Assembly: GCA_016199935.1 (NCBI GenBank)
Contig: JACQFS010000018.1
Location: 18,785 to 82,784 of the forward strand
Origin: Verrucomicrobiota bacterium
GTDB lineage: Bacteria; Verrucomicrobiota; Verrucomicrobiia; Limisphaerales; JACQFS01
Direction: 5' to 3'
Length of the DNA: 64,000 nucleotides
A model generated the notes under the pieces. That model was not told the DNA's origin. It saw nothing but the letters and a program-made list of their open reading frames with translations, and searched no databases. The first letter of the stretch is position 1; each line of letters opens with the position of its first letter. Below are positions 2,450 to 11,418 of the stretch, one piece after another. The translations under genes and the position numbers were made by a program.

Positions 2450-2616
2450 CGCCGCGGCTTTGTGAACCTCACCGACACCGTGGAAGAACTCGTGCGCCGC
2501 AGTGGCGTCAAGGAGGGGTTTTGCCTGGTCAACGCGATGCACATCACGCGGCGGGGTCCATCAACGACAACGCGGGCGACCTGCTGCACGACTACGAGGT
2601 GTGGCTGGAAAAACTC
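2450..2616 (+). pseudogene. yjbQ: YjbQ/UPF0047 family, N-terminal fragment
   Basis: [33 protein letters not shown], a frameshift, then INDNAGDLLHDYEVWLEKL; no intact start. Confidence 0.8.
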
Positions 2617-2999
2617 ATGGGCAGCAGCGATCGGATCGGTGAACTGGAGGTCCGGCTCCTGCAACTCGGCGCTCGGAATGCAGGCGAGGATCGCCAGTGG
2701 GAAGTCATTTCCGAAACATTGTCGAACCACCGGTCGAAACTTAAGGCAGCGAACGTCGCGTTCGACCAGAGAGCTGGGGCGATCTCTTTCGTTCCCCTCA
2801 ATCACACGCCTGTGCTGAGCGTGAATTCGCCTGTGCCAGGAAGGTGTGCGCTTCGCATCTTTGAAAAAACTGAGGGTCGGCGACCCGGCCCGAGGCATTT
2901 TTCCTGGGCGGCGGCGTTGACGGCGGGGGAAATATTTGCATCAATACTCATGAACGAGAGGGAATTCCCCGACTCAGACCGGCCACGATTCTCGCGCCC

Positions 3000-5624
3000 A
3001 TGAGTGACACACAAGCCCTGCCCTACCGGCCACTGAGCCGGCTGGTGCCCGCCGCACTCTGGCGGCGGCGTTCCGCCGTCGGCCGGGCCGTGCTGGAAGC
3101 GCCCGAGGAGGCCGGGCCGCGACCGTCGGCTTCCGACCGGCCGCGGGTGCGCGGGAAATTTATTTTTGTCGGTGGGGAAAAGCTGCTGGTCAAGGGCGTG
3201 ACCTACGGCACGTTCCGGCCCAACGAGGAGGGCGAGCCTTATCCACCGCTGCCGCAGGTCAAACGTGACTTCCAGCAGATGCGCGAGGCGGGGATCAACA
3301 CCGTGCGCTTTTACACGCCGCCCTCGAACCGCATCGCGGACGCGGCGGCGGAGGCGGGGCTGTTCATCATCCCGGAAATCTGCTGGGGTCCGCGGCGCTG
3401 CGAGCTGGATGATCCCGAGCGGGTGAAGTTCATTTTCCAGTGGGTGCGCGAACACGCCAAACGGCTGGCGAGGCATCCGGCGGTGCTGATGTATTCCATC
3501 GGCAACGAGATCCCGCCGTTGCTGGTTCGCTGGTATGGCCGCGAGCGAATCGAACAATTCCTGCGCGACATCGCCGAGGCCGTGCGCGAGGAGGCGCCCG
3601 GCACGCTGCTGACTTACGTCAATCATCCGCCCACCGAGTATCTGCACCTGCCGTTCATTGATGTCCTGTCGTTCAACATCTATCTGGAACGCGAGCCGGA
3701 GTTCCGCGCCTACCTGGCGCGCCTGCAGTCCTTGTCGGGCGACAAGCCGCTGATGCTCGCCGAGTTGGGGCTGGACGCGCACCGCAACGGCGACCGGGCG
3801 CAGGCACGGTTCATGGACTGGCAACTTCGAGCGGCGTTCGAGAAGGGGTTGGCGGGGGCGGTGATTTTTTCGTGGACGGATGAGTGGGGGATTTTCGGCA
3901 CGGAGATCGTGGGCTGGTCGTTCGGGCTGACCCGTGGCGACCGGTCGCCGCGGGTGGCGTTGCGGTTCGTGAGCCGGATTTTTCACTCCAGCCTGACGCG
4001 GCTGCGGCCCGGCGTGAAGCCGATGGTCTCCGTGGTGGTATGCTGCTACAACGCCGCGAAGACGCTGGAGGAATGTCTGCGCTCCCTGGCGAAGCTGCGC
4101 TACCCCAATTACGAGATCATCGGCATTGACGACGGCTCCAGTGACCACTCGCACAAGATCATGGAGCAGTTCGGGGTGCGCCGCATCCAGGTGCCCAACG
4201 GCGGCCTGAGCCTCGCGCGCAATCTCGGCATCGAGGCGGCCCGCGGCGAGATCATCGCCTTCATCGACTCAGACGCCTACGCCGATCCGGACTGGCTCTA
4301 CTACCTCGTCACGGCGATGGAGGAAAAGGAGGCGGTGGCCGCGGGCGGGCCGAATCTTTCTCCGCCGGAGGACGGCTTCACGTCGCAGTGCGTGGACCAC
4401 GCGCCCGGCAATCCGACGCATGTGCTGACGGATGACGAACTCGCCGAGCATGTGCCCGGCTGCAACATGGCGTTCCGCAAGGACGCGCTGAAGGAGATCG
4501 GCATGTTCGATCCCACGCACCGCGCGGCCGGCGACGACGTGGATGTGTGCTGGAAGCTGCTGGTGCGGCGGAAAAAAATCGCCTTCAGTCCCACCGCGGT
4601 GGTCTGGCATCACCGCCGATCCTCGATCCGGACGTTCCTGCGGCAGCAGCGCGGCTACGGATTTGCCGAGGCGCATCTCGCGAACCGCTACCCGGGGCGC
4701 TACAACTTTTTCGGCTACGCGGTCTGGCGCGGCGGCATTTACGACGGGGTTCATGCCGGTCTGCGGCGGGAAGGGGTGCCGCTCCTGTTCGGTCCGTCGC
4801 GGGTGTATCAGGGACAGTTCGGCAGCGCGCAGTTTCAATCCATCTACCAGCCGTTTCAAACGTGGTGGTTTCAGATTTTCACGACGGTCGAGTGGCAGGC
4901 GCTGACGCTGGCCGCGACGCTCTCCGGCGCGTTGGTGCTGCCGCACGGAAAATGGATGGCGCTCGCTCCGTTGCTCGTCGCCGTGCTCATGCTCGCGGCC
5001 CTGATCGGCGCGGCGGTGACGGCGGGACTCCACGCGGCCAGGCTTCGCAACTGGCGCGGCTGGCAGCGGACCGGTGGCATCCTCACGGTGGCGTTTCTCC
5101 ATTTCGCGCAACCGCTGGCTCGGGCGCGCGGACGGATCAGCGGATGGTTTTCGGCCCGCAAGGAACGCATCGAATACCCCGCCGTGCAGCGGCTCTGGGG
5201 CAACCTGGAGAAGCGTGAGGAGTGGTTGAACCGGCTGTTGGAGCACCTGCGCGACTGCGGTTGGGTCGCGAACCCCGCGTGCGAATTCAGTTCCGGCGAC
5301 CTCGAGGTATCGGGACCGGGGCCGTGCCGGGTTGAGATCACGTCCTTGTATGAGGAACAACTGGAAAAAAATTATTACTTCGTCCGCTTCCGTCTCACCG
5401 CGCGTTACAAGCCTGGTGCCTGGGCGGTGATGGCCGCGCTGGCCGTTCCGCTCGGCCTCGCGTGTTTCCATTGGTGGAGTCTGCCCCTGGCGCTGCCCGC
5501 CGCTTTTTTCTTGTGGCGTCATCTGAAGGCCCGGCAGGACATGACGCGCGCCGTGTCCCAACTCGCCCTCGAAGTCGCCGAGGCGTGCGCCATGCCACGC
5601 GTTGATTCCAAGTGGGGATGCTGA
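3000..5624 (+). CDS. Clan-A glycoside hydrolase (GH2/GH5-like TIM barrel) fused to a GT2 glycosyltransferase with C-terminal TM segments
   Basis: GH motifs SIGNEIP and LAELG; GT2 motifs DDGS, IDSDA, GCNMAFR, GDDVD, QQRGY; hydrophobic C-terminus. Confidence 0.85.
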   Translation: MSDTQALPYRPLSRLVPAALWRRRSAVGRAVLEAPEEAGPRPSASDRPRVRGKFIFVGGEKLLVKGVTYGTFRPNEEGEPYPPLPQVKRDFQQMREAGINTVRFYTPPSNRIADAAAEAGLFIIPEICWGPRRCELDDPERVKFIFQWVREHAKRLARHPAVLMYSIGNEIPPLLVRWYGRERIEQFLRDIAEAVREEAPGTLLTYVNHPPTEYLHLPFIDVLSFNIYLEREPEFRAYLARLQSLSGDKPLMLAELGLDAHRNGDRAQARFMDWQLRAAFEKGLAGAVIFSWTDEWGIFGTEIVGWSFGLTRGDRSPRVALRFVSRIFHSSLTRLRPGVKPMVSVVVCCYNAAKTLEECLRSLAKLRYPNYEIIGIDDGSSDHSHKIMEQFGVRRIQVPNGGLSLARNLGIEAARGEIIAFIDSDAYADPDWLYYLVTAMEEKEAVAAGGPNLSPPEDGFTSQCVDHAPGNPTHVLTDDELAEHVPGCNMAFRKDALKEIGMFDPTHRAAGDDVDVCWKLLVRRKKIAFSPTAVVWHHRRSSIRTFLRQQRGYGFAEAHLANRYPGRYNFFGYAVWRGGIYDGVHAGLRREGVPLLFGPSRVYQGQFGSAQFQSIYQPFQTWWFQIFTTVEWQALTLAATLSGALVLPHGKWMALAPLLVAVLMLAALIGAAVTAGLHAARLRNWRGWQRTGGILTVAFLHFAQPLARARGRISGWFSARKERIEYPAVQRLWGNLEKREEWLNRLLEHLRDCGWVANPACEFSSGDLEVSGPGPCRVEITSLYEEQLEKNYYFVRFRLTARYKPGAWAVMAALAVPLGLACFHWWSLPLALPAAFFLWRHLKARQDMTRAVSQLALEVAEACAMPRVDSKWGC

Positions 5625-11085: not shown

Positions 11086-11323
11086 CGTTGAAACGGATTT
11101 AGTGTCGCATCTAGGTCGCCTGTGCTGGTGAACGCGAGCCAGCCCACGCCACAGGCCTTTTCATCGCGGAAGGCGGATACAATCATTCTTTTTTTCAAAA
11201 GTTTTCATCGCCGACCGCACCAGTGGCGCGCGAAGCCAGTTTCATCCCGATGATGTTGACTCCGTCGGTTCTGCGCGTCGAGCGAAGTCTGAACTTTCCC
11301 GGTGCAGAACGCTTGGCGCGACT

Positions 11324-11418
11324 GGGAAATTGGCCTTCGGCCCGTGGGAGCAGATTTTCTACGGCGAGTTCGACGGCCGCCGGCGCAGCGGGCGCTGGTG
11401 AAAATCATCGGCGAATGA
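11324..11418 (+). pseudogene. yjbQ: YjbQ/UPF0047 family, C-terminal fragment
   Basis: [21 protein letters not shown], a 1-nt frameshift, then RALVKIIGE and TGA; matches the canonical YjbQ C-terminus. Confidence 0.85.

Follow-up and report, generated by a model that had tools for sequence, protein, structure and literature searches.

The stretch of DNA analysed here (the window; 64,000 nucleotides) corresponds to positions 18785-82784 of contig C256 of assembly G000, which has 260 contigs and 5.03 Mb and is 97.7% complete and 4.3% contaminated, and the homologues of the window proteins are annotated as Verrucomicrobiota. The window shows a yjbQ gene of the type-A subfamily that is a pseudogene, divided into two pieces by an insert of about 8.7 kb (2617-11323). 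The gene order in this region is: ligA on the minus strand, a short-chain dehydrogenase (SDR) gene on the minus strand, the N piece of yjbQ on the plus strand, the insert, the C piece of yjbQ on the plus strand, and iscS and dnaN, both on the plus strand. The best explanation, to which we give a probability of about 0.6, is an old insertion by illegitimate recombination, accompanied by a deletion, into a dispensable yjbQ which has since decayed. No mobile element is present and none is needed.

The N piece of yjbQ (2441-2616) contains codons ~11-70 of a 139-codon type-A YjbQ (UPF0047), and the C piece (11324-11418) contains codons 109-139 and a TGA stop. Both were delimited by partial matches to PF01894 and by alignments with full-length homologues, P0003 and P0007 among them. 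A search with the joined pieces matched thousands of YjbQ proteins of 139 amino acids (aa), and alignment to full-length homologues of this size shows that exactly 38 codons (71-108; 114 nucleotides, nt) are absent. The two halves share one strand, follow each other in the correct order and lack the middle of the gene, as a first-pass annotation made from the sequence alone had described, with bounds that are now refined. That annotation also reported a frameshift in each half, and nucleotide alignment places one 1-nt deletion in each of them: between 2546 and 2547 in the N piece and at about 11383/11384 in the C piece. In three-frame translation, reading resumes in the next frame after the N-piece deletion as SINDNAGDLLHDYEVWLEKL, and the C piece after its deletion reads RALVKIIGE-stop. 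The indels had been said to cluster at the junctions, but they sit 70 nt and 60 nt from them. The start codon and the first ~10 codons of the N piece are unrecognisable, and one codon is absent near codon 13. A further frameshift near the start of this piece was considered and rejected, since in ungapped alignment the first ~10 codons are merely unrecognisable. The gene has lost its start codon and 38 further codons and bears two 1-nt deletions, and it has no intact open reading frame (ORF).

Both pieces belong to one subfamily. They show ~78% aa identity to the same full-length type-A proteins over the aligned columns and only 28% to the intact type-B paralogue that the genome carries on contig C79, so the possibility that the halves derive from the two different paralogue types, A and B, which would have undone the idea of a split gene, does not hold. 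The C piece shows 84-94% aa identity to full-length type-A proteins. The pieces cover positions 1-28 and 88-109 of PF01894, weakly, and the C79 gene matches the UPF0047 model strongly; a search of the whole genome with this Pfam model shows no further copy of type-A yjbQ. At the nucleotide level, the identity to intact orthologues is 0.71-0.79 for the N piece (mean between orthologues, 0.75) and 0.75-0.84 for the C piece (mean between orthologues, 0.79), and the two pieces are equally diverged. The aa identity of both pieces is somewhat below that found between intact orthologues, and a conserved ASVF is replaced by AAGS. The stronger reduction of aa than of nt identity, together with this replacement, is as relaxed selection predicts.

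The left edge of the insert is not featureless: it shows a 160-nt sequence (2596-2755, plus strand) that is 75% identical (121/162, blastn) to positions 35964-36123 of contig C133 of the same genome. When the junctions were compared by blastn with the whole genome, this match was found to begin 21 nt before the end of the yjbQ homology. Within the 21-nt overlap the window is identical to yjbQ at 20 of 21 positions and to the C133 copy at 15 of 21, with the last 6-7 nt perfect, and all three sequences share the final AAACTC. Homologies that overlap in this way mark a joint that arose at microhomology, and the left joint, which shows them, is the only one that can be analysed. The 160-nt sequence is probably non-coding, as all six frames score alike and its aa identity to the C133 copy (53%) is lower than its nt identity (75%). 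It shows no Rfam match, and an ORF that overlaps it (2521-3003) has no Pfam match. A resemblance at this edge ('AGEDRQ') was considered as a possible survival of the missing yjbQ codons and was rejected, because its spacing is wrong and the stretch is homologous to C133 instead.

None of the signatures of a mobile element was found, in agreement with the first-pass annotation, which had seen no integrase, transposase, terminal inverted repeat or target duplication. Pfam searches of the ORFs of the insert, including the Resolvase and Recombinase models, show no recombinase or transposase domain, and tblastn with the serine recombinases of two genomes of the order (G214 and G279, see below) gives no match in the window or in the whole genome. 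Comparison of the ends of the insert for terminal inverted repeats, direct repeats or a target duplication gives only chance-level matches. There is no tRNA or tmRNA as a target or within the insert, and no Rfam family at either junction, and plasmid records contain nothing similar except a conserved motif of 94 nt. Of the features of an insertion sequence or transposon (transposase, terminal inverted repeats and target-site duplication), none is present, and of those of an island at the 3' end of a gene, the integrase is missing and the yjbQ tail is present in a single copy, so there is no direct repeat of the tail at the far end. Besides the microhomology of the left joint, two further features of a recombination scar are found, loss of target sequence (114 nt) and lack of element-encoded machinery.

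The first-pass annotation had left misassembly as an option, which the assemblies of independent runs do not support. The runs that carry the region are public groundwater metagenomes from a single study, and the per-run contigs (k=31) of separate samples were aligned to it. Contigs of X1 (2305-3814), X3 (2374-3240) and X2 (2502-2887) span the left junction (2616/2617) with no gap, and contigs of X1 (10715-11364), X3 (10581-11371) and X7 (11033-11371) span the right junction (11323/11324). Other contigs of X3 (11348-11900) and X7 (11348-11800) bear the C-piece deletion and run on into iscS. No per-run contig joins position 2616 to 11324, as would be found in a strain without the insert. Contig depth is 5- to 10-fold higher in all runs over 8663-9039 and 11342-11377, and these peaks are due to the mapping of conserved FtsX and yjbQ sequences of other community members, not to copy number.

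The place where a wrong join could have arisen is a 36-nt node of the C piece (11342-11377), which is common to the intact yjbQ of other organisms and where the k=31 path branches. In the graphs of X1, X3, X6 and X7 the left contigs stop at 11364-11371 and the right contigs begin at 11348 or later, and the yjbQ of other organisms, whose loose ends read ...VVAITKGKLD, enters and exits through the same node. However, the left contig already has the truncated C piece fused to the region upstream of the adaptor gene of the insert, and the right contig is already frameshifted, so that both sides are parts of a pseudogene however they are joined. Depth on the left and on the right varies in parallel from run to run (5.1 and 4.0 in X7, versus 7.9 and 7.7 for the other organism), ordinary reads exceed 36 nt, three runs have contigs that pass cleanly through the left junction, and ligA and iscS-dnaN are also neighbours, only 3.1 kb apart, in the relative G031. 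Since both the junctions and the indels are reproduced in contigs of independent runs, a chimera at this node is extremely improbable, and the contig is very probably correct at this locus.

Of 40 related genomes, 27 have an intact type-A yjbQ, in every case on another contig than iscS-dnaN, and 13 have none. A gene absent from about a third of the relatives is dispensable, and the lineage is probably in the course of losing it. A wider search in 400 genomes of the order, with follow-up on 25, shows many partial type-A copies, often in same-strand arrays. In G214 (contig C26) an element of 11 kb splits the gene: codons 1-45 are at 4399-4533 and codons 38-139 at 15712-16017. A gene encoding a large serine recombinase of 601 aa (Resolvase and Zn_ribbon_recom domains) occupies 13973-15775, immediately ahead of the C part, another gene that is resolvase-like is near 9904-10515, and an extra fragment encoding aa43-139 is at 17164-17454. 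The similarity to the intact gene breaks off, and begins again, around AACGCCATGCA (codons 42/43), and arrays of fragments encoding aa42/43-139 are found in G279, G083, G039, G147 and G219. In related genomes, yjbQ is thus a true landing site for large-serine-recombinase elements, at codon 42/43. The locus studied here does not show this crossover, in which the halves abut between ATG and CA without loss: its N piece reads through to codon 70 and its C piece begins at codon 109.

The same-strand arrays of partial yjbQ copies were observed in G279 (C13, 5490-12138), G225 (C530, 4970-13460), G083 (C26, 2642-9846) and G140 (C19, 5722-8335). Their copies mostly begin at aa 42/43 and are spaced by 1-6 kb of small genes of no known function. 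The array of G279 holds a truncated serine recombinase gene (10018-10740), and that of G225 holds a gene encoding an IS200-type Y1 transposase (12268-12771) and a repeated unit ending in ...CCACCGCCTACTGCCCACTGACC directly before two tails that encode aa104-139. Four genomes of different families show a conserved sequence of ~100 nt directly upstream of a fragment encoding aa43-139 (G039, 3742-3900; G083, ~9430-9556; G219, 7439-7560; G147, ~5740-5858), which resembles an end shared by the members of one family of elements. In the genome checked for this, G039, the sequence contains the start of a divergent gene encoding an XRE-type helix-turn-helix protein, and the 21 kb between its intact yjbQ and the fragment encode giant surface proteins and no recombinase.

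The flanks of the locus show ligA (2-1393, minus strand), an intact SDR gene that is the left neighbour of the pseudogene (1433-2371, minus strand; Pfam adh_short, E=1.5e-47), iscS, which encodes a cysteine desulfurase of the NifS/IscS type (11469-12656, plus strand), and dnaN (12888-13997, plus strand), the last two assigned by Pfam and NCBIfam. Throughout the order, and in metagenome relatives too, iscS and dnaN are adjacent, and never with a type-A yjbQ upstream; dnaA was not seen near iscS-dnaN in the stretches examined. The regions upstream of iscS, examined over up to 14 kb at 20 loci from the order, contain no type-A yjbQ, SDR gene or gene of the insert, and in the 80 best metagenome iscS loci, at most 75% identical, there is no yjbQ upstream. 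The closest SDR homologues are 77-79% identical and lie in unrelated contexts without yjbQ, ligA or iscS, and the contexts of the closest intact yjbQ genes are likewise unrelated to this locus. The synteny SDR-yjbQ-iscS, which the first-pass annotation suggested looking for, is therefore present in no relative examined. In G031 the genes that separate ligA from iscS encode a molybdopterin oxidoreductase and an aldo/keto reductase. In G001, the only genome of the same family, uppP adjoins iscS, together with uvrC and ppk; in the genome studied here uppP is found 20 kb farther along, and uvrC on a different contig. As the contents of the interval between ligA and iscS differ in G031 and G001, this is a variable region. 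In G008 (contig C175) a type-B yjbQ (3265-3620), seemingly frameshifted and 58-68% identical to the C79 copy, lies directly upstream of iscS. The adjacency of yjbQ and iscS may have arisen more than once, and the position of this type-B gene might reflect a sulfur/thiamine link between the two gene families.

The insert shows the genes previously recognised in it, a glycoside hydrolase-glycosyltransferase fusion, an ABC exporter and a MacAB-like set, all of them confirmed by Pfam. The first gene (3000-5624, plus strand) encodes a fusion protein of 874 aa with a GH2-like TIM barrel and a processive-type GT2 glycosyltransferase (Glycos_transf_2, 1.8e-35; Glyco_trans_2_3; Glyco_hydro_2_C, 5e-11), hereafter the synthase, for which no NCBIfam model attains its cut-off. 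Its ORF is overlapped by 13 nt by that of a half-size ABC exporter (5612-7405, plus strand; ABC_membrane and ABC_tran), with a transmembrane domain and an ATPase, which is MsbA- or glucan-exporter-like (MsbA_rel, 5e-136; glucan ABC transporter, 3.5e-115; all scores under the cut-offs). Synthase and exporter (3000-7405) form a candidate unit for making and exporting a glycan. The best homologues of the synthase, at 56-61% identity, belong to Verrucomicrobiota and Planctomycetota, and its identity to the copies of related genomes and to the second copy of the same genome, on contig C259, is only 38-44%. The usual synthase copy of the order, which is the one on C259, being so distant (~41-43%), the one in the insert is an extra, divergent paralogue.

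The MacAB-like operon is convergent to this pair and ends 17 nt from the exporter gene. Its first gene encodes a periplasmic adaptor of the MacA/HlyD type (9907-11085, minus strand; HlyD_D23 and HlyD_3; RND_mfp, 3e-48, over the cut-off), whose best copies in relatives are 52-56% identical, and it is followed by two genes encoding MacB-type permeases (7422-8864 and 8674-9900, minus strand; MacB_PCD and FtsX; partial NCBIfam matches to MacB and ADOP). The permease bounds are those of the longest ORFs, and greedy calling of longest ORFs gave spurious ORFs in this genome of ~65% GC. The ATPase domain that E. coli MacB has at its N terminus is absent from the permeases, and the operon contains no ATPase gene; it may be truncated or served by an ATPase encoded elsewhere. 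A paralogous set is found on contig C137 of the same genome. Between the adaptor gene and the C piece, the right edge of the insert is a non-coding stretch (11086-11323) in which no repeat, RNA family or homologue was found. The synthase and exporter genes are also adjacent, as a conserved pair of overlapping genes, in two unrelated metagenome contigs of the PVC (Planctomycetes-Verrucomicrobia-Chlamydiae) type, L080 (9001-13427) and L081 (8216-12635), without MacAB-like genes, which makes the 8.7 kb a composite of two modules. A foreign origin by composition was considered and rejected, since the insert is typical of the host genome: its GC content is 0.66 versus 0.644, and in tetranucleotide distance from the genome it ranks at the 59th percentile among random genome windows of the same size. 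No donor of the block was found, the best synthase homologues being those at 56-61% and plasmid records giving no match, in a search that did not extend to the phage collection.

Illegitimate recombination is not site-specific and needs only microhomology, and the mechanism, order of events and age that we infer are as follows. An ancestral type-A yjbQ would have been located just upstream of iscS-dnaN and broken by illegitimate recombination, in one or a few events in which codons 71-108 (114 nt) were replaced by ~8.7 kb of DNA that now carries two independent and apparently intact modules: synthase and exporter, and adaptor and two permeases. The left joint would have formed in the 21-nt patch where yjbQ resembles the 160-nt edge of the incoming DNA, and the remnants of yjbQ would afterwards have drifted, with loss of the start codon, two 1-nt deletions and replacement of conserved residues. 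The single subfamily of both pieces, the loss of exactly 38 codons, the equal nucleotide divergence, and breakpoints (codons 70 and 109) that differ from the crossover of the relatives (codon 42/43) all speak for this explanation. Of the old integration with yjbQ as its target that the first-pass annotation had proposed, the presence of translocated or foreign DNA in a dead yjbQ stands, and the targeting is not supported: an N piece that reaches codon 70, the loss of 38 codons and the microhomology joint fit untargeted illegitimate recombination better. Several observations weigh in the other direction. Neither an empty site nor a donor was found in the relatives and metagenome loci examined, so there is no direct view of the insertion and no basis for analysing the right joint, and the 160-nt edge sequence is known from only two copies, too few to classify it. 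The N-piece deletion lies only 6-7 nt from the serine-recombinase crossover of the relatives, which may be a coincidence or an old scar. Orphan yjbQ tails in G225 and G023 begin at codons 104-110: the right breakpoint of this locus (codon ~109) lies ~3-5 nt from the start of the G023 tail, and two G225 tails, which are copies of one unit, begin ~15 nt upstream of it. The closeness of these starts could hint at a specific site.

The most interesting alternative is a history in two steps, which we consider unlikely. An island would have docked in yjbQ by site-specific recombination, whether in the tail of the gene, near codon 105-110 and with the tail duplicated, or by means of a serine-recombinase element, and a later deletion would have removed the recombinase, the end of the island and codons 71-108 or more, fusing codon 70 to internal island sequence by microhomology and leaving an island that is locked in without its integrase. 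The left joint does resemble a deletion joint, and the order shows both proven landing in yjbQ (the 11-kb element of G214 with its recombinase of 601 aa) and the fragments encoding aa42/43-139 of five genomes, besides the orphan tails that start near codon 109. However, there is no remnant of a recombinase in the insert or in the genome, the N and C pieces do not overlap and no second tail copy exists, so no duplication of an attachment (att) site is visible, true tail fragments are found in only two other genomes, with flanks unrelated to this locus, and the cargo is housekeeping-like, with the composition of the host. The stronger claim, that the locus is a fossil yjbQ-docking island that has lost its recombinase, att sites and gene middle, and that the tail at codon ~109 is a second docking site of Verrucomicrobiota distinct from 42/43, is quite unlikely. 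If it were true, yjbQ would be a landing pad with multiple sites, and one route would be known by which cargo blocks without an integrase become fixed beside the origin-proximal iscS-dnaN. It is very unlikely that the two pieces come from two different type-A copies, such as that of the host and one borne by an element, joined by independent rearrangements close to the region of the replication origin. It is true that an element landing in yjbQ often brings a copy or fragment of this gene with it, that gene order in the region differs greatly among relatives at the family level, and that type-A yjbQ lies beside iscS or the SDR gene in no relative; but the pieces share a strand, keep the order of the gene and do not overlap, both resemble intact genes in the same pattern, and the genome contains no further type-A sequence. 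The comparison between one gene and two copies rests on 59 + 31 codons.

With insertion by illegitimate recombination as the preferred explanation, the significance of the locus for this genome is small: type-A yjbQ is dead, an extra synthase/exporter pair and an extra MacAB-like set have been gained beside iscS-dnaN, and the contig is trustworthy at this point. For the study of yjbQ as a landing site the locus serves as a negative control, as not every broken yjbQ of PVC bacteria is due to serine recombinases acting at codon 42/43, and surveys that score a split yjbQ as an integration should verify the breakpoint.

Under either history the locus is a genomic scar of a kind already known, rather than a new mobile element. 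Scars of illegitimate and homology-facilitated illegitimate recombination are known from natural transformation and from spontaneous rearrangements of bacterial genomes. The locus resembles them in showing no mobility gene, terminal repeats or target duplication, in the loss of 114 nt and in the short, imperfect homology at the joint that can be analysed. It differs in its large and composite insert, and the anchoring homology which defines the homology-facilitated form is not demonstrable without a donor and a second joint. The elements at codon 42/43 of yjbQ, as in G214, are analogous to the integration of phiC31- or SPbeta-type phages inside genes. They share with the locus the gene subfamily, the bacterial order and the arrangement of same-strand pieces around a cargo, whereas the locus has no recombinase, has its breakpoints at codons 70 and 109, has lost 38 codons and carries biosynthesis and export genes in place of an element backbone. 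Decayed islands and cis-mobilisable remnants also occur at the 3' ends of genes, such as e14 or phage 21 in icd. They resemble the locus in the orphan 3' tail of the target at the end of a block without an integrase, and differ from it in that here the tail is not duplicated, the upstream copy is truncated and not restored, and no att core is identifiable.

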